From Candidatus Hermodarchaeota archaeon (GTDB lineage: Archaea; Asgardarchaeota; Hermodarchaeia; Hermodarchaeales; Hermodarchaeaceae): a stretch of DNA of 64,000 bases. The stretch's first letter is position 1; every line of letters starts with the position of its first letter. The DNA lies in contig JAEOUH010000069.1 in the NCBI GenBank assembly GCA_016839365.1, positions 33,698-97,697 of the forward strand, in the 5' to 3' direction. Below, in pieces: positions 4,416 through 35,492 of this stretch. The translations under genes and the position numbers were made by a program. Under the pieces are notes generated by a model, which was given only the letters and a program-made list of their open reading frames with translations, was not told where the DNA came from and did not search any database.

Positions 4416-5039
4416 ATGACCACCCACAATCAGCATTCCAAAGAAGAATCAACAGCTCCTACGGTCTTTCCTGTCTACGTCTTTGAGAGAACTAGCAAAT
4501 CAATCTTCAACTATTGTCTCAACAAAGCCACAGGGTCATCTCCGCGTGAAGCCCTGGGCGTCGTTCTGGGCTTTCGTCGACAATGGCAGGGAGAGAAGTA
4601 TATCCGTATCACCGATTGGGCCACCGGACACGTAGAAGCCAGTATTGCCCATGCCCGGTTCACTCCAGAAGGTATCCTCGAATATCGGCTTACCCTGCAC
4701 GATCGGTATGGCAATAATCCCCATTCTCCTCGCGTCGTCGGCCTCTGGCACTCCCATCCCTTTGGTGGCGATCCGCAGTTCTCCTCAACGGATTTACGTA
4801 CATTCTTCAACACGCCTTTCTGTGCTGAGGGCAACGTCTTCTTTTTGATTGATCCCCTCAGCCGGATCTTCAAAGTGTATATGCTTCGACCACGGCCCGA
4901 ACAGCCCGGCTTACAGCTAGAAAGGGTAGAATGGTGTACCTATCGTCCATCAGTCCCCGCTGGGGAACCAATGCTTCAGGATAACTCGCTAATCCATGAG
5001 GAGGAAATGCGTGATGACGAAGAAGCCCACACCGATTGA
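4416..5039 (+). CDS. JAB/MPN+ (JAMM) metalloprotease, putative Ubl-processing/deconjugating enzyme
   Basis: N-terminal catalytic Glu (PREALG) and a complete JAMM motif VGLWHSHP-x7-S-x2-D (HSHPFGGDPQFSSTD). Confidence 0.9.
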   Translation: MTTHNQHSKEESTAPTVFPVYVFERTSKSIFNYCLNKATGSSPREALGVVLGFRRQWQGEKYIRITDWATGHVEASIAHARFTPEGILEYRLTLHDRYGNNPHSPRVVGLWHSHPFGGDPQFSSTDLRTFFNTPFCAEGNVFFLIDPLSRIFKVYMLRPRPEQPGLQLERVEWCTYRPSVPAGEPMLQDNSLIHEEEMRDDEEAHTD

Positions 5040-5877
5040 TTTAGAGTATTTTGAGAAGGATCAGCATGATCGAACACGACGCTGGTTGGGGGCTACCAAT
5101 CTTGAGGCCGTTCGTCAGTCAACGGTACTGATGGTGGGCGCAGGGGCAGTCGGGAATGAGGTCTGTAAGAATCTCGGCTTGTTAGGGGTTGGGAAAATCG
5201 TTTTGGTGGATCCCGATAAAGTGGCCGCCTCCAATTTGAACCGCTGTGTTTTCTTTCGTCCAGGAGACCACGATATTAAGTTCAAAGTCGATGCAGTGGC
5301 TGAGCGGCTCCCTGAACTCGCAACCGATACAGTGGTTGAACCACATGCCATACCGATACAGGTTGCACCGGACGAAGTGTGGGATGTTGACTTAGTGTTG
5401 GTCGGTGTTGACAACCATTATGCCCGCTACCTGCTGAATGCTAAAAATCTCAGCATCGAGCCACCCTTGCCAGTGATAAATGGGGCTATGGGAAAGGACT
5501 TCGTGTCAGTTGAAGTCCTCGCGCCACCAAAGACAGCGTGCTTGGTGTGTTCGTGGAGTAAAGACTTCGTCGATCATGTCATCACCAACGAAGTACGCAC
5601 ACGATGTGATCCTTTCTTTGTTGACACTATGCCCCGATTTCCCATGATTAGTTTTGTTACCTCCGTTGTGGGCGCAGTGATGGCGTGGGAAGCCACAAAG
5701 ATGCTTGCTGGATTACAGCAGTGGCGTCTAACGGGGCAATGGCAGGAGGGGCTCAAACCAGCACTTGGCCGGTTCATCCAATACGACTTACACAAGCATA
5801 AATCCATGACAGGACCAATTATGGCAAATCCACGGTGTACAGAAATTTTCTGTCGCGATAAGCGGAAACATCTCTAA
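5014..5877 (+). CDS. ThiF/UBA-family E1-like Ubl-activating enzyme
   Basis: GAGAVGNE nucleotide loop, DPDKVAASNLNR, VDN, Zn ligands CLVC and C-x4-C, candidate catalytic Cys in RTRC. SD GAGGAGG precedes ATG 5014; overlaps the JAB gene. Confidence 0.9.
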   Translation: MTKKPTPIDLEYFEKDQHDRTRRWLGATNLEAVRQSTVLMVGAGAVGNEVCKNLGLLGVGKIVLVDPDKVAASNLNRCVFFRPGDHDIKFKVDAVAERLPELATDTVVEPHAIPIQVAPDEVWDVDLVLVGVDNHYARYLLNAKNLSIEPPLPVINGAMGKDFVSVEVLAPPKTACLVCSWSKDFVDHVITNEVRTRCDPFFVDTMPRFPMISFVTSVVGAVMAWEATKMLAGLQQWRLTGQWQEGLKPALGRFIQYDLHKHKSMTGPIMANPRCTEIFCRDKRKHL

Positions 5878-5881
5878 CCCG

Positions 5882-7483
5882 TTAGATTAAACCAATGGTC
5901 TTCTGCCAGACCGTTGAAGTCGGTTTCTGATCAGCCCACAAGCGTAGGTTCAGAGTTACTTTGGGGGCTCCATTTGGCATAGGGAGGTTCATCCAAATAT
6001 TCACAGGGGAATCTAATCGAGGTGCGAAGGGTTCAATAGCCACTACCTGGTCCATAAGGCCGTCTGAAACGGTTGCTGTCATCACCATTTGGTCTAACGG
6101 ATGGGCACTGCTTGGTTTTGGAATCAATGAGACCTTCAAGGGCAACGTACTCCCACGTGGGACAGCATCAGGGGCGTTAACCTCTAATTCTGCGGGGGCT
6201 TCTCTCAACCGGGCGGGAACCGATTCGGGGACACCCACCACTCGTTTTACTTTCCACCCGGTCTCAATCTTGGGCTCAGAACGCTCTCCCTTTTTTCCAT
6301 CAATGGCAACAGTATCAGAGTACCAACTGACTTTGAATTCTTGGCGGACGCGAGTATCCATCCAGTTTCCGATGATAAGGGGAATATGACGGTTTGTCAC
6401 TCCTAACAATCCCATGGCCCCATGCCAGGTCGGATCAACAGGGATCCATTGACCCCGAATCCAAATTTCACTCCAAGCATGACGCTCCCAGGACTGCCCA
6501 TTATAAGCATAACCCGCTTCCAATCGGGCTGGTATTTTGTTCGCGCGACACAACGCCGCAAATAAAGCGGCATATTCAGTGCAATCACCAACCTGCTTTT
6601 CGATAGCATAAGCTGCTCCTCTTTCATACTCTTGACGAACATACCGCATCTTCTTTGTAACTGCCCTCATCGCTGCTTGTGCAAATTGTATCGGTGTTGA
6701 ATGATCTTTAGCAATATCTCGGGCAAGATCTTTGATGAGGTGGTGGTGTGATTCTATGAAATTTTCTGGTTGGGTGAACTTAACGATATTGGATGGAAAG
6801 GCTGAGTTGCGAGTTTCTGGCGGAATATTATACCGTAGTGCGCGATTCCGAATGAGAGCTGTGTACCCACAGGTAAAGGCTTCTCCAACAGCAAGACTAG
6901 CTTGATGAAATCGTATCCATTGATTTCCGATTGTATCATTCTGTTGTTGTCCATCCTTCGGAGAGAACTGGATATCAAGTACCGTTTGCCGAGGAGGCAG
7001 CGAAGGCGGAGCAGCTATTATAACTCGAACATTGCTGATTCGAGCACGTGTAATGTTCTTCACAGTCGCTGAATAATTGACCCTGTGCACTACAATTGGT
7101 GGATGTCCTCCTTCAAAGCGAAAGCATCCCATGACATAATGATCGTCGGGAGGTCCTCGATAGGGATACTTATCGATTGCGGCTTTGATGCGGGTTTCCT
7201 GCAATGCAACAACGATTGTATAGAATCCAGACAGCAGATTTGCCGTCAGTGGCACACTAAATTCACCTGTATTAGTCTTACCAAAATGAAACGGGACCTT
7301 ACTCACCATTCGCCCGAAGGGATCAATGATGTAGACGATCCCATTGTCAACCTTTACATTCGATTTTGCTTGACCCTTTCGTTTCAACTGAATAGAAATC
7401 CGTTGACCGGCTTTAACACTCGGAACACCATCTTGCCTCGTAGGGGCGATAATTTTCAAAGACACGGGAAGATTACTCGTCAT
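5882..7483 (-). CDS. Transglutaminase-like (Cys-His-Asp) domain protein with flanking beta-rich domains
   Basis: GDCTEYAALFAALCRANKIPAR...HAWSEIW...W.PVDPTW gives an intact triad; no obvious signal peptide; overlaps the upstream Zn-finger gene. Confidence 0.85.
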   Translation of the reverse strand: MTSNLPVSLKIIAPTRQDGVPSVKAGQRISIQLKRKGQAKSNVKVDNGIVYIIDPFGRMVSKVPFHFGKTNTGEFSVPLTANLLSGFYTIVVALQETRIKAAIDKYPYRGPPDDHYVMGCFRFEGGHPPIVVHRVNYSATVKNITRARISNVRVIIAAPPSLPPRQTVLDIQFSPKDGQQQNDTIGNQWIRFHQASLAVGEAFTCGYTALIRNRALRYNIPPETRNSAFPSNIVKFTQPENFIESHHHLIKDLARDIAKDHSTPIQFAQAAMRAVTKKMRYVRQEYERGAAYAIEKQVGDCTEYAALFAALCRANKIPARLEAGYAYNGQSWERHAWSEIWIRGQWIPVDPTWHGAMGLLGVTNRHIPLIIGNWMDTRVRQEFKVSWYSDTVAIDGKKGERSEPKIETGWKVKRVVGVPESVPARLREAPAELEVNAPDAVPRGSTLPLKVSLIPKPSSAHPLDQMVMTATVSDGLMDQVVAIEPFAPRLDSPVNIWMNLPMPNGAPKVTLNLRLWADQKPTSTVWQKTIGLI

Positions 7484-7868
7484 TATCTCGACCTACTTGG
7501 TCGGCTTCAGAGCGGGATTCGATTCCTTCTTCTTCTGGAAGAATAACTACTTTTCCACCCAGTGGTTGAGGTGAGCGTCGGGGGACATCGCCCAATATTC
7601 TCACAGATGTTCGTATCTCCGTAGGTTGGCTTCCTAAATCCAATCGGGGACCCAAAAACCGAGTAAAGTGTGGAGAGTGGGCTTCACCGCCACGAACGAT
7701 TGCTCCGGGACAGGTGCCTTGCCCTGATTCTAAGAAGAGGGCACGACACGAAGGACAAATATAGCTACCACAGACTGTACAAATCCACCATTGGCTCCGT
7801 GCATTTTCAAGTGAAACTTGAGTGGCACAAGCCGCACACCGCATTTGGGATGCACCATGTATACTCAT
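7473..7868 (-). CDS. RING/PHD-like Zn-finger protein (candidate E3) with disordered acidic tail
   Basis: C-x2-C-x15-C-x2-C-x4-C-x2-C-x11-CP-x9-H; ATGA overlap with the upstream gene. Confidence 0.7.
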   Translation of the reverse strand: MSIHGASQMRCAACATQVSLENARSQWWICTVCGSYICPSCRALFLESGQGTCPGAIVRGGEAHSPHFTRFLGPRLDLGSQPTEIRTSVRILGDVPRRSPQPLGGKVVILPEEEGIESRSEADQVGRDNDE

Positions 7869-8083
7869 GATGGTCTCTCCTTAAGCTCACGTCGTTTCTT
7901 TTTACCATGAATTCTAATGGAATAATAAGGCGAAAAGTTGGGAGGTCGTTCTTCTTCAAAAGGGATGTCTCTCTCTCGGAGAATCTGAATCCGGGTTTCC
8001 CTCTCAGATTCATTCGTTGATTTTTCAGGTTCTTCCTCATACTCGTCGGGGCTTTCTTTCTCCTCTGAAGGTGGATCCGACAT
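7865..8083 (-). CDS. Small disordered protein (acidic N-terminus, basic C-terminus) in the Ubl operon
   Basis: SD GAGGTG upstream of ATG 8083; fills the gap between the E2 and Zn-finger genes with translational coupling. Confidence 0.65.
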   Translation of the reverse strand: MSDPPSEEKESPDEYEEEPEKSTNESERETRIQILRERDIPFEEERPPNFSPYYSIRIHGKKKRRELKERPS

Positions 8084-8097
8084 AATTGACACCTCGT

Positions 8098-8850
8098 TTA
8101 TCTCTCATCATCAAGAATCCGAACCGATGTACGTCTACTTGGTTTATCCAAAACGCGGGGCGCCCTTCGAACAGATTCCGCGCTTGATGATGAGGACTCA
8201 AGTATGCGTACACGTCCCTGCCGTGAAGCCGCAGCTGGCCCATCCTTGTGCTGGGCTTCCCAGAGCTGATCAAGGGTTTCAACGATTCTGTCTGCATCTT
8301 GCTCATACCATGCCATAGCCGCCATATTTAGACCATGATCGGATTGAAACTGAGATGGTGGTTCTACTCGGTCTGGTTTTAACAATACAAAAAAGGGGAG
8401 ATCTTCAAGGATACGATCTAATTCTCCACGAACCGAGTAGCAGGCATGTCCAGTCCCGCTCGCCGCCAGTCTGGGGTGATACAGGGGCGTTTCTGCTACA
8501 GGTCGAATGGCGCCTATGTTCTGAGGGTACTCTCGGGGCAAATCAAAGATGAATCGATGCTCATAACGTATGGCGCTTGTATCCTCAAGGTTTCTGGGTT
8601 TACGAACGAAGCCGGGGAGATTACGCATAGTAAAGCGAATCCGTTTAAAAGCTCCATCGCGATATCGGGCGATGGTGGAAACGGTGAAATCGCGATTGCT
8701 CCAAGCTGTGTCTTCGCGGTGCGGAGGATCTGGATCCCACCCTCGTCGTCCAAAGAGATTGTTCATAGTGTCAAAAAATGTCTGAATCTGGGTTTCCACT
8801 CTGGCGTTAAACAGCTCAGTAGAGAATACTGGTCGGGTCACGATTATCAC
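8098..8850 (-). CDS. UBC-fold E2-like Ubl-conjugating enzyme
   Basis: FIFDLPREYP...TPLYHPRL-x5-GHAC matches the E2 pattern FPxxYP...TxIxHPN-x-GxIC, with the Cys conserved; LNMAAMAWYEQD matches the E2 LNxxAAxxY helix. Confidence 0.8.
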   Translation of the reverse strand: MIIVTRPVFSTELFNARVETQIQTFFDTMNNLFGRRGWDPDPPHREDTAWSNRDFTVSTIARYRDGAFKRIRFTMRNLPGFVRKPRNLEDTSAIRYEHRFIFDLPREYPQNIGAIRPVAETPLYHPRLAASGTGHACYSVRGELDRILEDLPFFVLLKPDRVEPPSQFQSDHGLNMAAMAWYEQDADRIVETLDQLWEAQHKDGPAAASRQGRVRILESSSSSAESVRRAPRVLDKPSRRTSVRILDDER

Positions 8851-8894
8851 CCTCAGTTCCTGTATTCGTCTCGGGTGTGTGAAGATTTTTTTTG

Positions 8895-9215
8895 TTATTG
8901 TCCGACTTCAGGGACTACATCGAGGAGGAAGAATTCATCATCGGTGATTTTTGGTTCTAGCTCCCCGAAGGTTATACCTGGACTTAGCCGGGTGGGTTCA
9001 GGGGCTTTACGGATGAGCACAAATTCTGCACGCTGGTCCCCGATTTTCGCTTTAGCCCAATCGTCAATACTGACGCCCTCATCACGGGCCTGGGTGACAA
9101 GAGTGCGGATGACTTCATCGACACGGGTATCTTCATCAATGCCGATTCGGAATTCCTTTTGACGGGGCTCAACATCGACGATGATTGAGCGCCAAAATCC
9201 TTCATCTTTACTCAA
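8895..9215 (-). CDS. Ubiquitin-like (beta-grasp) protein ending ...VPEVG-Q
   Basis: 106 aa; strand-strand-helix (DTRVDEVIRTLV), then strands, TFGEL (like the Ub TLxD motif), a final strand FLLDV and a near-terminal Gly. SD AGGTGA before TTG; first gene of the E2 operon. Confidence 0.75.
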   Translation of the reverse strand: MSKDEGFWRSIIVDVEPRQKEFRIGIDEDTRVDEVIRTLVTQARDEGVSIDDWAKAKIGDQRAEFVLIRKAPEPTRLSPGITFGELEPKITDDEFFLLDVVPEVGQ

Positions 9216-9457: not shown

Positions 9458-12352
9458 ATGACCACTAGGCACAAGCCATCCTTATCAACTTCACCAATCG
9501 TGTTTCGTAGTATCCGTCTAGTGAACTTTGTCATTCACCGTGATACCACAATCCAACTCGATCAATCCCCTGTCATTCTTATTACAGGCTCCAATGGAAG
9601 CGGAAAAACCTTGATTCTCGACGCCCTGTTGCTCGCAATTGGCGTTGAATCTCGAAGAGCCCAACGTCAACGCAATTCGGCTTTCATCGGTCGATTCGAG
9701 AAATATGCTGAAGTCATTCTAGAACTTAACAACTACCAACTCAATGGGCGACGAGTCTTAAGAAGCCCCGATCCTACCATGTCTGCGCTTCTTGATAAGG
9801 ACGTTGTGTCGATCCGGCTACGAGTCGATGAAACAAACCGAATATCCTATTGGTTGAATGAAAAACGATCAGTGAATGGCCATCAGATTGCTCGTAAAGA
9901 TATTCGGAAACTCTTCCAAGCTGCTGGACTCTTTGGAGATTCTCCCTTAGCTGTTACTGAGGCTGAGACTTTAGACCACTTTGCCTCCCAATCTCCACGA
10001 CGAAAGTTCGAGACTCTCCTGAACGAAACTGGGCTCCGTAATTGGATGGAAAAACTCGAGGAAGCCCGTCTCCTCGTATTACAGGCAAGAGCCAATGTCA
10101 AGCCCCTCGAATACCGGATCCGCCATGAAGAACAGCGCCTCCAGGTTCTGAAGGCAGCCTATGAAGCTTTTCAACAAAAACAGCAGCTCCAACAGAGACA
10201 GAAGGATCTCGACGTTGAAGCGGCCTGGGCTGAAGTGGCTTATCGTGAGGAGCTTGCTAGCCAACTCCAATCACAAGTTACCAGTCTGGAAACCCAACTC
10301 TCCGACCAAAATGAGAAATTGGACAAGTTAGACCAAAGGAAAACCAGCTTGAAAGAGAAGTGCGAAGCGATTGAAGCAAAACGGGAAAAGCTCCTAACAA
10401 CCATGGACTCGCTACACGATGAGCGGTTGCAAGCACAAGGCCATCGGCGAGGGCTAGAGAATGAACTCAAAGGCATGCTAAATCGAACAGAACGATATAC
10501 CAAGCGTCGGAAGCCCGCAACAGGCAAAATTGACGCCATTCAGAAGGAGTTAGCAACGATTATCCAGGATCGAGATGGCATCGATGATCAACTCGCTCAG
10601 GTCCGACAAGATATTGCCTCAACGGAAGAGTACCTCTTTACCAAACCCCAACGGTATCCACATTTTGAAGAGACAATACTTCGGGGCTGCCTCCGATACC
10701 GGTCTGAACTTGATAAACTCGCACTCTCTGATGCAGTGATTGGGCCCCTTTTTGCGCTCATTCGTATGAAACCGGAGTATGCACAGTACGAAACCGCGGT
10801 CAAACTGGCCTTGGGACGCTACTCCTATGCATTCATTGCTCTGAATCGAGAGGTCTTCGTTGAGGCTAAAAACTTGTATGATCATCTCTGGCCACATGAA
10901 AAGCCAGATCTGGTGGTCGCCCGGACAAATCCCACGACCGCGATAACGCGAGATCGCCCAACGGTTTCTTTACCCGTGATTGGTTGGGCAGCTGATCTCA
11001 TTGAAGGGGATATATATGCCATTAGTTTCCTAAGCCGTGTCATAAACACAGCTATCGCGGAGGAAGGAGCCGATCCCAACACGCTAGTCGATGCCTCTCA
11101 ACAACTCAATTGCAACATCATTACTAGTGAAGGAACAAGTCATTATCTCCGAATCGGCGCCTTTGCCCGACCACCCCGACCCGTTACGGTAAGTTTGGAT
11201 GTCTCTCTCAACGATTTGGGACTAGCCCAGGATGGCGCTGATACACGCATTCAACTCCGTGAACTTCGTGAACAAGAAGCTAAACTGATGCGAGACCGAA
11301 TGCGCATCAATTCTGAAATAAGTCAACTTCGGGCAACCCTCCAAGACCTTCAGCAAGTGCACATATCTCATCTTTCTGATGGGGAAAGAACAGCCCTGGT
11401 CACTAGTTCTGAACATCGAGTCGCTGAATTACAACAACTGATTCTTGAACTGGAAACTGAATGCGACAGGCTTAGCCAAGATTATCAGGAATATAACTTA
11501 GAATTATCACCGATCCATTCCCGACAGCAAAAACTATCCGAACAACTCCAAAACCTTGACCTTCGACGATCACGCCGTCAGGTTGAAATCAACCACCTCG
11601 TTGCAGAGCTCAAGCAACGCGAAGATGAATATGAGCATCTCATTAAACAAACCAAACATTTCCGTAAGGCTGCCACAGCACTGGGAGAACGCCCTCAGGC
11701 TGTTCGAAACCCTACTGCGATTCGTGATGAACAAATCCAAATCCAGGCGATGATTGATACTATCACCGCCACAGCAGACGATCGGCAAGCCTTTGAAGAC
11801 CAGGAACAAGTCGTCTCCCAACTCCAAGACTACCTCAAACAACGTCAGCTCCACTTAGAAAATCTGATGACGGACGTTGATCGAAGACTTCTCGAGTGGA
11901 GACGGCAACTCCAAGAGACGGTTGAAATCCTCAACCACCGTATGAACCAATTACTCAGCCACTTCCTCAAGCAAGTCAAACTGCTTATTCGATTCCCCGA
12001 TGAACCCAGTCGTGCGGAGCTCCACCTTCAACTTGCCATTAACCGCAAAGGCGACTGGCGGACCTATCAAGAAATGTCTGGGGGCGAACGGGTCCTAGCC
12101 ACCCAGACTTTCATTTTAGCCCTACACACTCTCGCCAAGAGTCCCCTCCATGTGATTGATGAATTTACCCAACGCCTCGATGAAGCAAGCCGTGCAGCTA
12201 TTCTCAGTGTTGTTCAACGCGCCCTCGATTTAACCCAAAAAGACTCACTAATTCATCCACAGTTTCTTCTAATGGCTCCCTCCACGGTCGGACTCGAGAT
12301 CCCAGAGACTATGCACCACGTCGTGCTGATCAAAGGACAGGTGAAAGTCTAA
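9458..12352 (+). CDS. SMC-family ATPase of the SMC5/6-related type
   Basis: IRLVNF..H, Walker A GSNGSGKT, two long coiled coils around a hinge (VIGPL...AVKLALG..AFI), signature MSGGER, Walker B/D-loop VIDEFTQRLD, and His-less switch QFLLMAP as in SMC5/6 QF/YxxxTP. Confidence 0.9.
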   Translation: MTTRHKPSLSTSPIVFRSIRLVNFVIHRDTTIQLDQSPVILITGSNGSGKTLILDALLLAIGVESRRAQRQRNSAFIGRFEKYAEVILELNNYQLNGRRVLRSPDPTMSALLDKDVVSIRLRVDETNRISYWLNEKRSVNGHQIARKDIRKLFQAAGLFGDSPLAVTEAETLDHFASQSPRRKFETLLNETGLRNWMEKLEEARLLVLQARANVKPLEYRIRHEEQRLQVLKAAYEAFQQKQQLQQRQKDLDVEAAWAEVAYREELASQLQSQVTSLETQLSDQNEKLDKLDQRKTSLKEKCEAIEAKREKLLTTMDSLHDERLQAQGHRRGLENELKGMLNRTERYTKRRKPATGKIDAIQKELATIIQDRDGIDDQLAQVRQDIASTEEYLFTKPQRYPHFEETILRGCLRYRSELDKLALSDAVIGPLFALIRMKPEYAQYETAVKLALGRYSYAFIALNREVFVEAKNLYDHLWPHEKPDLVVARTNPTTAITRDRPTVSLPVIGWAADLIEGDIYAISFLSRVINTAIAEEGADPNTLVDASQQLNCNIITSEGTSHYLRIGAFARPPRPVTVSLDVSLNDLGLAQDGADTRIQLRELREQEAKLMRDRMRINSEISQLRATLQDLQQVHISHLSDGERTALVTSSEHRVAELQQLILELETECDRLSQDYQEYNLELSPIHSRQQKLSEQLQNLDLRRSRRQVEINHLVAELKQREDEYEHLIKQTKHFRKAATALGERPQAVRNPTAIRDEQIQIQAMIDTITATADDRQAFEDQEQVVSQLQDYLKQRQLHLENLMTDVDRRLLEWRRQLQETVEILNHRMNQLLSHFLKQVKLLIRFPDEPSRAELHLQLAINRKGDWRTYQEMSGGERVLATQTFILALHTLAKSPLHVIDEFTQRLDEASRAAILSVVQRALDLTQKDSLIHPQFLLMAPSTVGLEIPETMHHVVLIKGQVKV

Positions 12353-13143
12353 TGATAACTAATGATACTTCTACATTTCTCCGTGCCTTTCCGCGCCGCA
12401 AGGCCTGGTATGACACTTTCCAATACAACTACAAGCGAACACGACTATCATCTTTTGGAACCAAAGGGATAGTAATTACGCTATGGAATCTGACCAAAAA
12501 GTATGAGGTTGCCCTAAAACAGCACGATACGTTCCCGATTAAGGAAGCGGAGATTGACCGTGAAGAAGTTGCCGATGCATACCGCGTCCTTGATACCCCC
12601 TGGGAACGAACTCTCGATGGGCGTTTCTACTATAATCTCGCTTCAATGCAACATCACCGGGATTCTCAATTGGCTGCTCCTGAAATCGCTCCCGAGGAAT
12701 GGATTTCCCAATTTGCCAATGAGGTCAAACGACGCGCGACTCCGGTACTCTTTTTAATTAATCAAGAGCGGACCATCCCACCTTTCCAATTGCCTCCTGC
12801 TGATTCGCCGGTCGCAATGGACGATGCCCCTACCCAAGATGATAAACAGGCTATGCGCAAACACCGTATCTCTTATGAAGAGATCTCCATAGACGCTCTC
12901 GGCGCTAGAAGGGCGGATATCCTGAAACGGCTACAAGGCAAACGATACAACTATGCAGCCCTATCCGAAATCCTAACCAACTGGGAACTCGATTTACTCA
13001 GCCAGATGATTCGGGATAACATCTGTCCTGCAACGTTCGAAAAAACGGCTATCATTTTTCGACACCCTCCACCTAAAACAAATCCTGCTTTCACTGCTGT
13101 TGCCATTACCGCACAAAACCATGAGGAGGTTCCTCGAAAGTGA
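12352..13143 (+). CDS. Hypothetical protein coupled to SMC; candidate kleisin (Nse4/ScpA-like)
   Basis: TAATG overlap with the SMC gene; helical N-part, Pro/acidic linker and C-terminal helical domain. The kleisin call is mainly positional. Confidence 0.45.
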   Translation: MITNDTSTFLRAFPRRKAWYDTFQYNYKRTRLSSFGTKGIVITLWNLTKKYEVALKQHDTFPIKEAEIDREEVADAYRVLDTPWERTLDGRFYYNLASMQHHRDSQLAAPEIAPEEWISQFANEVKRRATPVLFLINQERTIPPFQLPPADSPVAMDDAPTQDDKQAMRKHRISYEEISIDALGARRADILKRLQGKRYNYAALSEILTNWELDLLSQMIRDNICPATFEKTAIIFRHPPPKTNPAFTAVAITAQNHEEVPRK

Positions 13144-13787
13144 CCTCAGATCCAATACCTACTGACACCATCTCTTCCACAAGCGAGGATTCAGAAGAAG
13201 AGGTGTTAGAGCAACGTCATCTCATTGGTCAGCTCTTTGCCGCCCTCACAGCAAGGTTTCGGAATGAGGAAGGCCAACTCAGCATCGGGGTCAAACGGCA
13301 AGATCTTTTAGAAGCCCTTCATATCAATAAGACTGGCTTAGTCCGCCTCCTCGATTTACTCCGCCAGCAAATATCTCCCCTGGGGCTAGAATTGGTTGAA
13401 TATCGAATGGGACGGGACACGCTCTATTGTGTTCGAACCATTTACGGAGTTCCTGGCGAGCTCACTGATCCTGAATACGCCGTATTAGGAGTCATCATTT
13501 CCACTGTAGAACAGGTGAGTAAACTCCATCGTCCACGCCGGGTGGCCACAAAAGACATCGAAACAATCCTTGTAGCCCGTGGGCGCCTCTCCCGCTACCA
13601 ACTCGATCGTATTTTACGACGACTAACCGAGCTAGGCTATATTACGCGAACCGCACGACGAATTACTTACGGTCCACGACTCGAATTGGAATTTGATGCT
13701 GAACGCCGTGAAGCCATCGCCAGCGCAGCAACCCTGTATCTCGCAGGGGCTACAGCTGATTCGGAGGAAGACCTGAATGAAACTTGA
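13140..13787 (+). CDS. Tandem winged-helix KITE protein (Nse1/Nse3-MAGE/ScpB-like)
   Basis: LRQQISPLGLELVEY...LY, LTDPEYAVLGVII and LDRILRRLTELGYI...ITYGPRLELEF resemble Nse1/Nse3 WH-A and WH-B, including the terminal GPRxxxE; GTGA overlap with the upstream gene. Confidence 0.75.
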   Translation: MTSDPIPTDTISSTSEDSEEEVLEQRHLIGQLFAALTARFRNEEGQLSIGVKRQDLLEALHINKTGLVRLLDLLRQQISPLGLELVEYRMGRDTLYCVRTIYGVPGELTDPEYAVLGVIISTVEQVSKLHRPRRVATKDIETILVARGRLSRYQLDRILRRLTELGYITRTARRITYGPRLELEFDAERREAIASAATLYLAGATADSEEDLNET

Positions 13788-14238
13788 TCTCTCCACCGTT
13801 GGCATCAGTTGTGTAGCCTGTGGAACCCGAATCACACTTGAGGAGGCAATCCAGAAGGAATGGCACCAATGTTTACGGTGTCAGTTCTTCATTGATCCCC
13901 ATTGTCTTGGAATTGTCCAAAACACCATGGGTGGGGTCTGCCCCTCATTTAGCCAAGGAGTGACCCGTCATTCCTTGCAAGCTGCTGATATTCCTACAGA
14001 ACAGATCCTCATATTCGTCAAAGATCAATATCAGAAAGGTCACGGAGGTGCTCTCATCGACTCCTTATTTTATACCAGACCTTCAGCTTTAAAGAAACCA
14101 CAACACCCAAGTCAAATGGAATCGAACTCTGAAGAACCTCTCACCCGAGAAGAAATCTGGCAACGCTTTGGACTCGTTTTAGTGCAGCGGTCCCAAGGTA
14201 AATGGAAAACTTGGGAAAAAGTTGGCAGTACTAGCTGA
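13777..14238 (+). CDS. Nse1-RING-like Zn-finger protein, paralog of 7473-7868
   Basis: C-x2-C-x16-C-x2-C-x4-D-x2-C-x11-CP-x8-H; overlaps the end of the KITE gene by 11 nt. Confidence 0.7.
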   Translation: MKLDLSTVGISCVACGTRITLEEAIQKEWHQCLRCQFFIDPHCLGIVQNTMGGVCPSFSQGVTRHSLQAADIPTEQILIFVKDQYQKGHGGALIDSLFYTRPSALKKPQHPSQMESNSEEPLTREEIWQRFGLVLVQRSQGKWKTWEKVGSTS

Positions 14239-14240
14239 TA

Positions 14241-14672
14241 TTGTCCAAGGGACATAAACTATTTACCTATCAACCACTCATGCCTTCCTATACGAATTGG
14301 CTTGCATCATTTTTGGAGTTGATGGGTTTGGGTGACGAAAAGGCTCCCAGTTGGGTAAAACACGCCGTTCGGCGTTGGAAGCAATTCTATAATGAAATTC
14401 AGTTCATCGATGGACAAATTGATACTGCAAATCCGTTGAGTGTAATTTTCCGAAATGAAGCTCTCTTAAATCAAGTAGTATCCCAATCACAGGCTGTCAC
14501 CTCACCCATTGAACCAACCCTTTCAAAGAAAGAAGAATCAGCTCCATCTCAACCTGAAAAGACTCCTTCGCCAAATCCCGAAAAAAAGCAGCGCAAAGGA
14601 TGGTTCATTTCTAAACTCAAAGACCTCCAATACCTATTCAATCGCCCTCTTTGGTCCTGGGATTCTTTCTAG
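14241..14672 (+). CDS. Hypothetical protein, last gene of the SMC operon
   Basis: 2-nt gap after the Zn-finger gene; Pro/Ser/Glu linker and Trp-rich C-terminal tail. Confidence 0.55.
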   Translation: MSKGHKLFTYQPLMPSYTNWLASFLELMGLGDEKAPSWVKHAVRRWKQFYNEIQFIDGQIDTANPLSVIFRNEALLNQVVSQSQAVTSPIEPTLSKKEESAPSQPEKTPSPNPEKKQRKGWFISKLKDLQYLFNRPLWSWDSF

Positions 14673-30493: not shown

Positions 30494-30684
30494 ACTCAAT
30501 TACTTTCATTGGGGTGTCCCCTCCGCTTATATGTTTAAACGAACTTCCGAGTACAAGAAAGCTGATAAAACAGGTCAACGAACCTGCAACGCTGGACGCA
30601 ACCTACGGTTGGGCTTGGTGTAGAACCGTAACTCTTATGTCAGCTGGCGCAATCGATGCCGCTGACAAGATAGGTGACAGATGG

Positions 30685-33615
30685 GTGAGCGACGACAAGT
30701 ACATTACCGTCAAAGGCGCCCGGGTGCACAATCTGAAAGATATCACTGTGCAAATCCCCCGGGATAAATACGTAGTCATCACTGGACTCTCCGGTTCCGG
30801 TAAATCCTCGCTAGCGTTCGATACGCTCTTCGCTGAAGGACAGCGCCGATACGTTGAGTCCCTCTCAGCTTATGCGCGACAATTCTTAGGGCGCATGGAC
30901 AAACCCGACGTTGACTCAATCGAAGGCTTAAGTCCGGCAATCTCCATCGATCAACGATCCGCAGGAGGCAATCCCAGGTCTACTGTGGGTACTACCACTG
31001 AAGTGTATGATTATATGCGATTGCTCTGGGCCCGCATTGGCATTCCGCATTGCCACCAGTGTGGAAGAAGGATTGCCCCACAATCAGCACAACAGATTGT
31101 ACGACAAATCATGGAATTCGAGGAAGGTACTCAAGTCCGGATCCTCTCCCCGGTTGTAAAAGGTAGGAAAGGCACCTATAAGGCACTCTTCAAGAAGTTA
31201 CAGAGTGAGGGCTTCATCCGGGTTCGTGTCGATGGGAAAGATTACAGATTGGATAAAGAGGAAATCGATCTCGACCGATATGTTATTCACAATATCGAAA
31301 TAATCGTTGACCGGTTAGTACTTAAGCCCGCCGTCGAACAACGTCTGAACCAGTCCGTGGAAACTGCATTAGAGTTTGGAGAAGGATTAGTAATTGTTGA
31401 GGTTAAAGGTGATCAGGAGTATCTGTTTAGCGAGTCTGCTGGCTGTCCGGTATGTGGAATTAGTTTCCCAGATTTAGCACCCCGTCTCTTCAGTTTCAAC
31501 TCACCTTATGGAGCATGTCCGGAATGCAAAGGATTAGGGTACACACTGGAGGTCGATCCTGATCTTGTCATCCCCGACGAGACTAAGTCGATTATAGAAG
31601 GAGCGATCGCTGCCTACCACACTCCTTTGAATGGCTGGCGATTACGGAGTCTGACCAGCATAGCCAAACATTACGGATTCAGTCTTGATACTCCCTTCAA
31701 AGACCTTGCCCCCGAGATTCAGCACGTACTTCTTTATGGATCAGGCGAGGAGGAAATCCGATTCGAACACAGTGGTATCACTGAGTCAGGGCGAAAATGG
31801 GAATGGATCAGTGAGAAACCCACTATGGGTGTGATTCCAGGACTTAAACACCGCTATAAGCAAACGAGTTCAGAGGTCGTTCGCGAATCAATTACTCGGT
31901 TCATGGCTCAGCTCCCTTGTCCAGTGTGTCATGGTCGTCGACTACGTCCGGAAGCGCTTGCCGTCACTATCCAGGACAAGAGTATCGATTATGTGACGAA
32001 CCTCTCAATTGATGAAACCTTGGCCTTCTTTGATCAGCTTGAGCTTACGAAGAAAGAAGCTACTATCGCTCGGCAAACCCTTCGTGAAATCAAACAACGA
32101 CTGGAGTTTCTCTCCTCGGTGGGGCTAGATTATCTGACCCTGAATCGCCAATCAGCTTCGTTGGCGGGGGGTGAAGCCCAACGTGTCCGGCTTGCAACGC
32201 AGATTGGGTCTCGCCTAGTCGGAGTGACTTACATCCTTGACGAACCTAGTATCGGTCTTCACATGCGTGACAACAAACGCCTCCTCTCCATGCTTCTCCA
32301 ACTCCGTGACCTAGGTAACACTGTGCTTGTTGTCGAGCACGACGAGGGTTTCATCCGTGCATCAGACTGGATTATTGATCTTGGACCTGGTGCCGGTATC
32401 CATGGAGGACAAGTGGTCGCCGAAGGACCAGTCCCAGAGATTGAAGCTAATCATAAGTCCATCACCGGACAGTATCTCCGAGGGGATAAGGTCATTTCCG
32501 TGCCTCCTACTCGAAGAATCGGTAACGGAGCCAGCATCCAAATCAAACGGGCCCACCATCGCAACCTGAAAAATATCGATGTGACATTTCCACTGGGAAC
32601 CTTCATCTGTATTACCGGTGTTTCTGGGTCAGGGAAAAGCACACTCATCACAGATACCTTGTATCCTGGTATTATCTGGCAGTTTCGACGCCGTCGTCGA
32701 CGCCAATCCGATGCAATCTTAGCTAGCCGGCTCCTCAAACCTGGACCTTTCGATGCCCTCAAGGGCGTCCGCTTCATCGATAAAGTTATCCTGGTTGATC
32801 AGTCACCCATCGGGCGAACACCACGTTCCAATCCTGCGACCTATACTCAGGTATTTGGACCAATCCGTGAACTTTTCTCGAAGACCGAAGAGGCACGAAA
32901 ACGTGGATATCAACCCGGACGCTTCAGCTTCAACGTAAAAGGTGGTCGATGTGAAACCTGTGGTGGCGCAGGGGTTCTAAGAATCGAGATGCAGTTCCTC
33001 CCAGATGTTTTTGTGCAATGCGATGAGTGCCATGGTAAACGCTTCAACAAAGAAACCCTTCAAGTTCGTTACAAGGGCAAGACCATCCACGAAGTACTTC
33101 GAATGACGGTCGACGAAGCTGCAGAGTTCTACAAGAATATTCCCAAGATTGCTGGTATCCTTGAAACCCTTCAACGGGTTGGTCTTGGGTATATGGAACT
33201 TGGTCAACCTTCGCCGACCCTGAGCGGTGGTGAAGCTCAACGTATCAAACTCAGCCGTGAACTCGGTAAACGCAGTACCACTCAAACACTCTATATCCTT
33301 GATGAACCGACCACCGGTCTGCATCTTGCGGATGTCCAGAAACTACTTGATGTCTTGAACCATCTTGTTGACGCAGGGAACACCGTCATTGTCATTGAGC
33401 ACCAACCCGATGTGATTAAGGGCGCAGATTATATCATCGATTTGGGACCTGAAGGCGGTGACAAAGGTGGATATATTGTAGCCCAGGGAACTCCGGAACA
33501 AGTGGCACAGAATCGAAAATCCTATACAGGGGCTGTGCTTCGTGAAGCACTGGCAATGAAGATGGAACGTGATTCCGAAGATTCCACAGACCGCGTGAAA
33601 GTCCTCTCTCGGTAA
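30685..33615 (+). CDS. uvrA: Excinuclease ABC subunit A
   Basis: [29 protein letters not shown], two ABC modules and Zn fingers; SD AGGTGA supports GTG 30685 over the ORF-track start at 30514. Confidence 0.98.
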
Positions 33616-33665: not shown

Positions 33666-35492
33666 ATGAATCTTGAAGAGGAACTCAAGGACTTACCTGA
33701 CGCACCTGGTGTTTACATTCTATATGATGCCAATGATACCGTCATCTATGTTGGGAAAGCTCAATCTCTCCAAAAACGGGTGCCTGCCCATTTTCGTGGC
33801 AGCGGAAGTGGTAGCGTCTTCTCACCTATTGGGCAAGAAGTGGCTGAACTGGAATATGTGGTCACAGCAAATGAATCAGAAGCGTTGGTCCTTGAAGATA
33901 ATTTGATCAAACGCTACAGGCCACGATATAACATCCGCTTGAAAGATGACAAAAGTTTCCCTTATGTGCGAATTACACTCCAAGAAGACTTCCCAAGGGT
34001 AGAAAAAACACGTACACTTGTCAATGATGGTAGCCGATACATTGGTCCCTATTCCAACGTTAAAGCCTTGGATGGCTTCCTGAAATCAATTAATCGGATT
34101 GTTCCTATTGCCACATGTAAGCCAGCCATTGTTCCTGGAAAACGTAAACGCGCCTGTCTCAAATATGACATCGGCTACTGTCCTGCCCCCTGTATCAACA
34201 AGATTAGTAAAGAAGATTATGCTGAACTTGTCCAGGAGTACACACTGATGCTTACAGGGCAACAAGACGAGCTTGAAGCCCACCTCAAACGTCTTATGAA
34301 AAAAAGCTCCGATTCCCAGGAATTTGAACGGGCTGCCCGATACCGGGATCGGCTCCGCTCAGTCCAACGTGGCAGACAAGCACAACGTGCCACCTACTGG
34401 AATCAATTACCAGGCCACCGTGACGTATTGGGACTAGCTCGTCAAGGACCCGATGCCCTGGTCCAACTCCTCGTGGTCCGTGAAGGACGCGTAATTGGCC
34501 AACAACCGTTCCCCCTCAGTGCACCCTCCGAGCTCCCTGACGAAACGGTCATCGAAGCCTTCCTCAAGCAGTATTATCTACGCGCCACTGAAATCCCAGA
34601 GGAAGTCATACTATCTGTTCCCATAGCTGAGACGCAGTTTCTGGAAGAATGGCTCACTCAACGACGTGGGAATAATCACCCTGTAACAATCGTGCACCCC
34701 ACCCAGGAGCCCCTCATAAGTCTGACACAAATGGCAAATGAAAACGCTCAATTCCATCTCCACCAACTCGTCGAACGCATGGCTCGGGACGAAGGCCGAA
34801 AACAACAAGCCTACAACGATCTCATGGACGCCCTCCTTCTCACCGAAGAACCCGCCCATATCGAGGGGTTTGACATCTCGACTCTCCAAGGCACAGAATC
34901 AGTTGGTGTCTGTGTGGTCTTCAAAGATAGTCTTCCTTTCAAGAAGGGTTATCGGCGGTTCAAGATACGTGAAGTGGAAGGTCAGGATGATTTCGCGATG
35001 ATTAATGAAGTCGTCCACCGGCGTTATCACCGTCTAGTAACCGAGAAACTTCCTCTACCTAATCTCATCGTTATTGATGGTGGACGTGGACAAGTCAGTA
35101 TGGCACTCAAAGCCCTGGAATCTGTCGGCATTTTTAATATTCCAGTCATTGGTATTGCAAAAGCAGAAAAGCCCGATCCTGATCTTATTTACGTCCGTAA
35201 TCAGAAAACACCGGTCGATTTACCCGTAGATAGTCAAGGATTACGGTTAATCCAGCGAGTTCGTGATGAAGCCCATCGGTTTGCTATAGCTTATCATCGC
35301 AAAATCCGACAAATCAAGGGCATGAAACTTACATTAACCGATATTCCGGGCATTGGCGTTAAACGTGCTACTCTTCTCCTTCAGCACTTCGGCAACCTAG
35401 AGAACCTCTCGAAGGCTTCAGTGGATGAAATCGCTGCTGTCCCGGGAATAACTAAGCAATTGGCGAGCGAAATCATAGCGCATTTCTCATAA
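33666..35492 (+). CDS. uvrC: Excinuclease ABC subunit C
   Basis: GIY-YIG (PGVY...YVGKA), PRYNIRLKDDKSFPY, EGFDIS, IDGGRGQ, RDEAHRFA, HhH. Confidence 0.98.
   Translation: MNLEEELKDLPDAPGVYILYDANDTVIYVGKAQSLQKRVPAHFRGSGSGSVFSPIGQEVAELEYVVTANESEALVLEDNLIKRYRPRYNIRLKDDKSFPYVRITLQEDFPRVEKTRTLVNDGSRYIGPYSNVKALDGFLKSINRIVPIATCKPAIVPGKRKRACLKYDIGYCPAPCINKISKEDYAELVQEYTLMLTGQQDELEAHLKRLMKKSSDSQEFERAARYRDRLRSVQRGRQAQRATYWNQLPGHRDVLGLARQGPDALVQLLVVREGRVIGQQPFPLSAPSELPDETVIEAFLKQYYLRATEIPEEVILSVPIAETQFLEEWLTQRRGNNHPVTIVHPTQEPLISLTQMANENAQFHLHQLVERMARDEGRKQQAYNDLMDALLLTEEPAHIEGFDISTLQGTESVGVCVVFKDSLPFKKGYRRFKIREVEGQDDFAMINEVVHRRYHRLVTEKLPLPNLIVIDGGRGQVSMALKALESVGIFNIPVIGIAKAEKPDPDLIYVRNQKTPVDLPVDSQGLRLIQRVRDEAHRFAIAYHRKIRQIKGMKLTLTDIPGIGVKRATLLLQHFGNLENLSKASVDEIAAVPGITKQLASEIIAHFS

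Follow-up and report, generated by a model that had tools for sequence, protein, structure and literature searches.

A short strand-like motif in the disordered tails of a Hermodarchaeota ubiquitin-like operon and its possible role in docking

LIR/AIM motifs (LC3-interacting region or Atg8-interacting motif) bind the ubiquitin-like protein (Ubl) Atg8, and the UFM1-interacting motif (UFIM) of UBA5, itself a minimal E1, binds UFM1, a Ubl that ends in Val-Gly followed by two extra residues. Compact archaeal operons of the Caldiarchaeum type reportedly comprise genes for ubiquitin, an E1, an E2, a small RING finger and Rpn11, and we know of no shared tail motifs described for them. SUMO-interacting motifs (SIMs) sit on the SUMO E1 (SAE2), on E3s, on proteases and on readers or effectors, and bind by strand addition (PMC12751080). 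Here, we describe a short aliphatic motif that is shared by three consecutive proteins, an E2-like protein, a small protein and a Zn-finger protein, encoded in a Ubl operon of a Candidatus Hermodarchaeota archaeon (Asgardarchaeota; GenBank assembly GCA_016839365.1). The window, i.e. the whole stretch of 64,000 nucleotides that was analysed, spans positions 33,698 to 97,697 of contig JAEOUH010000069.1, and all coordinates of the operon and of the motif copies refer to it (Table 1).

The motif has the form [basic/Gly]-[VI]-x-I-L-[acidic] and is present in six copies, distributed over the tail of the E2-like protein, the 72-amino-acid (aa) small protein and the tail of the Zn-finger protein. An earlier note, made from the letters of the window, had quoted peptides from all three proteins, and every one of them was found in the sequence. 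Five of these hold as copies of the motif, while a sixth, the short PRVLD form lying between the two quoted E2 copies, had been overlooked; SIRIHG, which had been listed as a further copy, in fact belongs to a 29-residue module of the small protein, where it makes up the second of the strand-like elements (F-x-V-K-V-H). The identity of TSVRIL between the E2 tail and the Zn-finger tail was confirmed. The two stretches use different codons and differ at 6/18 bases, and no repeat at the DNA level connects them. Selection at the protein level thus accounts for the identity, and a DNA repeat or gene conversion was rejected as its source.

Over the 2336 open reading frames (ORFs) of the genome, the core [VI]xIL occurs at a rate of 1.08 per 1000 aa, so that five occurrences in 177 tail residues have a Poisson probability of 1.8e-6, bearing in mind that the pattern was defined after being seen. 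The E2 tail is the sole low-hydrophobicity cluster of the motif in the whole genome, with no second such cluster among its other proteins. Lone C-terminal look-alikes in a polar context, which may be due to chance, were noted in UvrA (1033 aa, window positions 30514-33615) and in a 173-aa ORF (contig C1, 8665-9186) that ends in ...RQQPIYILES.

The E2 was sought in 41 related genomes. All 18 remaining members of the window's family, which belong to two genera, have it, and so does one genome from a different family; a phylum-wide scan of 400 Asgard genomes located the E2 family in 32 of them, spanning four families (the window's own, f1, as well as f5, f20 and f21). Conservation was measured as the mean pairwise identity of alignment columns over 18 orthologous Hermodarchaeota loci. 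Motif columns reached 0.74 in the E2 tail, compared with 0.24 for the other tail columns, and the corresponding values were 0.68 and 0.24 for the Zn-finger tail and 0.81 and 0.26 for the small protein. The folded cores have identities of 0.80 and 0.71, on par with the motif columns. Conservation in orthologs, which the earlier note had put forward as a check of its idea, is thus evident: the motifs form conserved islands in variable, low-confidence tails, both in the 18 loci and in three more Asgard families. That the repeats would be a by-product of chance or composition is accordingly an explanation of very low probability. The core is short and loose, and its relaxed form [VI]x[VI][VIL] occurs at 5.6 per 1000 aa genome-wide; set against this are the Poisson value of the stricter core, the conservation equal to that of folded domains and the recurrence across four families.

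In all four families the motif is found in the E2 tails and in the small proteins; f1 and f21 have it in the tail of the Zn finger as well, and f20 in the tail of one transglutaminase. The f21 E2 tail follows the pattern GGI[KR]II ... [TA]I[RK]II ... GG[VI]RII-end, the small protein of that family reads ST[IV]KI[IL]SE[KR]D...PPPN[YF], and its Zn-finger homolog, 6.6 kb downstream, ends ...STVKILPKKSIKVIE... The E2 of f5 ends in GGIVFIE and its small protein contains KVVIIDE, and in f20 the E2 ends in KLKILS or KVVMLD and the small protein contains KIVILQE. One transglutaminase-like protein of f20 (locus L074, 2438-3745) carries the motif at its C-terminus (...KKKNKSSIVFLEE, ending SSIVFLEE); the transglutaminases of f1 and f5 lack a C-terminal motif. 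A broader sample of the E2 family consisted of 62 full-length cluster representatives from a collection of 5.8 billion proteins, and those bearing source names are all annotated as hypothetical and come from Asgard-type metagenome-assembled genomes. Three motif copies were counted in 47 of the 62 tails, two in 6, one in 8 and none in 1. Within the 47 three-copy tails the spacing is 18 residues (40/47) and then 11-13, with variable linker sequence, and a PRVLD-type copy follows motif 1 after 17-18 residues in 45/47. The core positions over the 161 instances in E2 tails are V/I, x, I/L and L/I.

The proteins that carry the motif, together with their neighbours, support the identification of the locus as a Ubl system, as it combines a UBC-fold E2, a ThiF-type E1, a JAB gene and a Ubl ending in Val-Gly. 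The Ubl, the E2 and the small protein are without a Pfam match, and the 131-aa protein has Zn-finger matches only below the threshold. The likely start of the E2 is at 8841, giving 247 aa. Its AlphaFold2 (AF2) model has a predicted local distance difference test (pLDDT) score above 88 for most of the core (residues 1-204) and below 50 for residues 205-249, and Foldseek matched it to UBE2G1, UBC9 and CDC34 at a probability of 1.0 and a template-modelling (TM) score of about 0.5 over the target. H124-P125-R126 and C136 do not vary among 14 sequences. There was no Pfam UQ_con match, and sequence comparison with solved structures gave only chance-level matches to acyl carrier proteins (ACP). We therefore regard the protein, which has the UBC fold, an HPN-like motif and a downstream Cys and lacks the UQ_con match, as a highly diverged E2.

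The Zn-finger protein is modelled at pLDDT above 90 for approximately residues 10-70 and at 36-60 in the tail. VIA-align placed it at Z 4.2-5.6 and about 3 Å over about 60 residues from U-box, Ring1b, RNF4, SP-RING, Nse1 RING and ZZ domains, Foldseek returned nothing at or below 0.001, and eight Cys/His ligand candidates are invariant. The model is thus suggestive of a RING-like domain. When the full-length E2 and Zn finger were modelled, neither tail was packed on its own folded domain. As for the Ubl, the C-terminus of the orthologs is an invariant PEVG followed by 0-3 variable residues, those of f5 and f21 stopping directly at Gly. It is strongly conserved (89% mean column identity) and has a net charge of -5 to -11 in all four families, with the exception of one over-called ORF; a profile of 16 orthologs found no solved chain at E up to 10. 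In Ubls with the triplet DED or EEE after beta2, position x of the motif is mostly Arg or Lys, and with SPD, QPE or QQD it is mostly Val, which for four related families is a hint that was not used as evidence.

Beyond the motif, the small protein has an architecture of its own, with an acidic N-terminal part, a conserved module and a basic C-terminal part. A profile search of 1.84 billion protein representatives returned 33 relatives, all of 42-173 aa except for a single 587-aa match (9 stretches). Setting that match aside, no relative found by the search is fused to a Ubl, E1, E2 or transglutaminase; in one of them (P0023) an N-terminal piece may be unrelated. The family pattern, [KR]-x-I-x-I-[IL]-x-E-[KR]-[DN]-...-P-P-N-[FYL]-x-P-...-H, extends beyond the shared motif, so that the latter forms the start of a longer module. 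In all families and in minimal loci the small-protein gene comes immediately after that of the E2, the ends of the two overlapping or almost touching. The role of stand-alone adaptor that had been suggested for this protein is therefore plausible in that it was never found fused, but the motif belongs to the longer module and the gene is always tied to that of the E2. Small proteins of f21 and its relatives (L058-L072; P0004-P0020) have a second conserved N-terminal peptide, acidic and then F-x-[FY]-E-[VI]-S-S, which is absent from the window's family.

Two distant loci are informative for the question of which partner the motif might have. The minimal locus L093 (4850-6803) has four genes in the order E1-Ubl-E2-small; its E2 stops right after the last helix, without tail or motif, and its 62-aa small protein keeps GLTILEEK...PPPN. 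In L094 (2865-3917), a distant metagenomic relative, the Ubl frame continues past ...QPVVG into an apparent N-terminal helix of the E2, the remainder of the E2 is a separate, overlapping ORF ending in PKVQILGD, and the small protein carries KVRILEEK. This locus is either a natural Ubl-E2 fusion with a split E2 or the product of a frameshift.

Compared with SIMs, the motif shares a four-residue core with at least three Val, Ile or Leu (VRIL, VVIL, IQIL), disorder in the unbound state (pLDDT below 50 in the E2 tail and 36-60 in the Zn-finger tail, linker identity 0.24-0.26), an often tandem arrangement, and its presence on the modifier's own E3-like and other pathway proteins. The flanks agree in part, with Asp, Glu or Ser after most f1 copies, whereas f21 copies are flanked by Gly or Lys or end the protein (GGVRII followed by the stop). 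Unlike in SIMs, basic residues or Gly-Gly precede the core in most copies and x is often Arg or Lys, and the modifier itself is not SUMO and has no solved sequence relative and no Pfam match. As the modifier is not SUMO, the motif is not a SIM in the strict sense; of the SIM-like reading in the earlier note, the core and the disorder stand, the acidic flanks apply partly and the correspondence of the modifier falls away. To our knowledge, UBC9 carries no such motif, whereas here it sits on the E2 itself.

The architecture of RNF4-type SUMO-targeted ubiquitin ligases (STUbLs), with which the Zn-finger protein had also been compared, has a counterpart in the combination, within one small protein, of a RING-like domain with tandem strand motifs, the two copies being 18 residues apart. 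Here, however, the order is reversed, the RING-like domain preceding the motifs, and there are two copies rather than four. Moreover, a STUbL must read one modifier and write another, and the locus has one Ubl system; there was no sign of cross-talk between the Zn finger and the canonical ubiquitin locus found elsewhere in the genome, a link that was not specifically examined. The STUbL comparison is accordingly a loose analogy, and SUMO E3s or an E2 carrying SIMs (PIAS, Nse2, ZNF451) are better analogues, as is the UFIM of UBA5. Like UFIM and LIR motifs, the copies described here are short, strand-forming and situated in disordered regions of a Ubl's own conjugation enzymes (compare UBA5, and Atg3, Atg4 and receptors); they differ from LIR motifs in having no aromatic anchor and from the UFIM in being carried on E2 and E3 tails instead of an E1 tail. 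UFC1 was absent from the Foldseek matches listed for the E2, the best of which are the three named above. With Caldiarchaeum-type operons, the locus shares the compact archaeal arrangement of Ubl, E1, E2, small Zn finger and JAB peptidase. The differences are that the E2 and Ubl are without a Pfam family, that a transglutaminase and a small disordered protein are added, and that the genome has a separate canonical ubiquitin locus.

Conservation, strand propensity, location in disordered tails, occurrence in four kinds of proteins and fixed spacing taken together make it quite probable that the motif is a docking motif with a common partner. As to the partner, the most economical reading is that the motif docks by strand addition onto the operon's own Ubl, to which we assign a probability of roughly 0.45; both the docking and the identity of the partner are inferred. 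The Ubl is the most economical candidate because one hub explains the four carriers (E2, E3-like protein, transglutaminase and small protein), because tandem copies suit conjugated or chained Ubl, and because eukaryotic Ubls are read likewise by their own enzymes and readers. Moreover, AF2 leaves the tails unfolded in cis, as would be the case if the motif took up its fold on a partner in trans, and charge complementarity between the acidic, conserved Ubl and the basic residues in the motif may contribute.

Under this proposal, the motif would act as a short linear motif with a four-residue aliphatic strand core, [VI]-x-[IV]-[LI], usually after Gly, Arg or Lys and, in the window's family, followed by Asp or Glu. 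Its carriers are the E2 tail with three copies, the RING-like Zn finger with two and the small disordered protein with one at the head of its module. Each copy would bind the acidic Ubl non-covalently by extending its beta-grasp fold with one more strand, at an edge or groove that is exposed. Through their tandem copies, the tails would keep Ubl, whether free or conjugated, close to the active site of the E2 and to the E3, and would thereby promote either chain formation or the modification of targets that already carry the tag. Co-produced with the E2, the small protein may serve as a Ubl-binding regulator or adaptor. Several observations weigh against this proposal. The position of the small-protein motif inside a 29-residue module and the gene's constant place after the E2 gene fit an E2-binding subunit equally well, and one lineage (L093) has a tail-less E2. 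The flanks are unlike those of SIMs, being basic or Gly-Gly upstream, with basic residues at x and without acidic flanks in f21, and the Ubl has no sequence relation to SUMO that could be detected by profile comparison with solved structures. Further, nearly all sequences stem from genomes that are related to each other, and the counts suggest more independence than there is. A complex prediction for the Ubl (16 rows) and the small protein (18 rows), run without controls, gave scores of 0.28 and 0.05 for a mark of 0.32 and counts neither way.

Within the locus the choice of partners is limited. As the motif is kept in minimal and distant loci, the transglutaminase, the Zn finger and the JAB peptidase are unlikely to be its universal partner, and the minimal loci leave only the Ubl, the E1 and the E2 core. 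The transglutaminase as universal partner was set aside because its gene, which adjoins the small gene in f1, f5 and f20, is not adjacent in f21 or in minimal loci. Docking onto a cascade enzyme instead of the Ubl, i.e. onto the E2 core or the minimal E1, has to be taken into account, although we consider it somewhat unlikely. In the case of the E2, the site would be the beta-sheet edge or the backside of the core. The small protein would then count as a subunit of the E2 and the Zn-finger tail as a second element binding the E2, comparable to G2BR or U7BR, and the tail of the E2 itself would be a pseudo-ligand that causes autoinhibition or oligomerisation. In the case of the E1, the motif would dock on a minimal enzyme that has no ubiquitin-fold domain (UFD) for E2 recruitment. 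Such docking would agree with the restricted set of in-locus partners and with the fact that the small gene directly follows the E2 gene throughout, and also with an E1 that is a bare 293-aa adenylation domain, since relatives of the minimal E1 recruit E2 or Ubl via short peptides (UBA5 tails). However, in the AF2 model the tail of the E2 stays off the core of the same chain (pLDDT below 50 for the tail), and a single site on the E2 or E1 poorly explains three spaced copies in the E2, two in the Zn finger and one in a transglutaminase. The existence of a lineage with a tail-less E2 also argues against docking of this kind and implies that the tail is not a general E1-docking device.

The partner could also lie outside the conjugation cascade, the motif docking the system onto a hub such as an SMC5/6-like complex, a proteasome- or Cdc48-type machine or another oligomer. 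The Ubl genes adjoin an operon of SMC, putative kleisin, putative KITE and Zn-finger genes in f1 (divergent) and f21 (co-directional), and the constant distance between the three copies would match a target that is oligomeric. On the other hand, SMC genes are missing beside Ubl-E2-small in f5, f20 and the minimal loci, no other protein of the genome has a comparable motif cluster, and the Zn-finger paralog of the SMC operon lacks the motif, all of which make an outside hub improbable. Improbable to a still higher degree is mutual strand pairing, by which the motifs would zip the E2, small protein and Zn finger into an assembly or condensate with no folded receptor. The same strand-prone core is indeed present on all three proteins, in several copies, but pairing is disfavoured by the charged x positions and flanks, AF2 builds no intramolecular sheet from the three E2 copies, and the small protein keeps its motif where the E2 is tail-less.

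The operon spans positions 4416-9215 and consists of two divergent units in which gene ends overlap or almost touch, with the JAB peptidase and the minimal E1 on the forward strand and the Ubl, E2-like protein, small protein, Zn finger and transglutaminase-like protein on the reverse strand (Table 1). Among solved structures, the best sequence matches of the E1 are the adenylation domains of UBA6, UBA1 and UBA7.

Table 1. Genes of the Ubl locus and copies of the motif, with coordinates in the window.
Feature	Position	Strand	Basis or remark
JAB/MPN peptidase, 207 aa	4416..5039	+	Pfam Prok-JAB 1.3e-8
Minimal E1, 293 aa, ThiF domain only	4996..5877	+	Pfam ThiF 1.5e-34
Transglutaminase-like protein, 533 aa, final gene of the Ubl unit	5882..7483	-	Pfam Transglut_core 4e-24
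Zn-finger protein, 131 aa: predicted RING/U-box-like domain (residues 1-75) and low-confidence tail	7473..7868	-	AF2, VIA-align
Zn-finger tail motif B, GKVVILPE	7533..7556	-	conserved as G-G-[KR]-V-[VI]-I-L-x-D
Zn-finger tail motif A, TSVRILGD	7587..7610	-	conserved as S-x-V-x-[IF]-L-x-D-V
Small protein, 72 aa from ATG at 8083 (ORF opens at GTG, 8092)	7865..8083	-	
Small-protein YSIRIHGK	7901..7924	-	strand-like element 2 of the module, not a motif copy
Small-protein conserved module, 29 residues: RIQIL-RERDIPFEEERPPNFSP-YYSIRIH	7907..7993	-	P-P-N invariant
Small-protein motif, TRIQILRE	7973..7996	-	first element of the conserved module
E2-like protein, 250-aa ORF: UBC-fold core (residues 1-204) and ~45-residue disordered tail	8098..8850	-	
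E2 tail motif 3, TSVRILDD, near the C-terminus	8107..8130	-	C-terminal copy in nearly every E2-family member
E2 tail motif 2 (short form), PRVLD	8146..8160	-	conserved as P-[RQ]-[IV]-L-[DGQ]
E2 tail motif 1, GRVRILES	8194..8217	-	conserved as G-R-V-[RQ]-I-L
Ubl, 106 aa, acidic, C-terminus ...PEVG-Q	8895..9215	-	ortholog alignments

The surroundings of the locus vary between families. In the window, an SMC-like gene and three to four small genes (9458-14672), including a Zn-finger paralog, adjoin the Ubl genes in divergent orientation; the Zn finger of the Ubl unit is related to this paralog (13777-14238) by 33% identity over 58 residues. Loci of f21 (L069, 1629-9796; L072, 2016-10138) have one co-directional row of SMC, two small ORFs, Zn finger, JAB, E1, Ubl, E2 and small protein. 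There, the gene after the small protein (L069, 9942-11660) encodes an aromatic amino acid lyase whose residues 277-324 are an inserted rubredoxin domain, and it occupies the place held by the transglutaminase in the window. In f5, the E1 and a Zn finger are on another contig, apart from the Ubl-E2-small-transglutaminase genes. The canonical ubiquitin locus of the same genome lies on contig C71 at approximately 37.3-41.1 kb (L089-L092). Besides an E1 (361 aa), a UQ_con E2 (111 bits) and a ubiquitin with a C-terminal GG (45 bits), it encodes a RING-H2 protein and another UBC-like ORF, and the ORF ends inspected there show no tail motif.

We found no description of this Ubl system or its motif in the searchable literature, and the E2, the Ubl and the small-protein family have so far been annotated only as hypothetical. 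New here are the distribution over four families, the copy number and spacing of the motif, the finding that the small protein has a module structure and stands alone, the natural variants without a tail or with an apparent fusion, and the fact that the motif cluster is unique in the genome. In passages of a survey of archaeal SMC5/6-related complexes, the Nse1 RING and the SUMO ligase Nse2 are treated as eukaryotic additions, and the passages found there by term search name no neighbouring Ubl genes (10.1101/2024.01.07.573240). The system is small (five short proteins), so that reconstitution and dissection in vitro are feasible, and six defined peptides with obvious core-to-Ala mutants offer a handle on the function of the operon and on its recurrent SMC5/6-like neighbourhood.

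It may be, though we consider it unlikely, that Asgard archaea hold a pre-eukaryotic reader-writer network in the style of SUMO and SIMs, in which a non-canonical, acidic Ubl is recognised through strand-addition motifs on its own E2, a RING-like E3, a transglutaminase and a small adaptor, and which is genomically joined to an SMC5/6-like operon in two families. If this were true, motif-based Ubl recognition and the link between SMC5/6 and a modifier, now held to be eukaryotic innovations, as far as the passages of the survey go, would have archaeal antecedents (10.1101/2024.01.07.573240). Strand-addition motifs are the way in which eukaryotic cells read SUMO, Atg8 and UFM1, and if the motif binds the Ubl, multivalent, motif-based reading of such tags would have existed in Asgard archaea.

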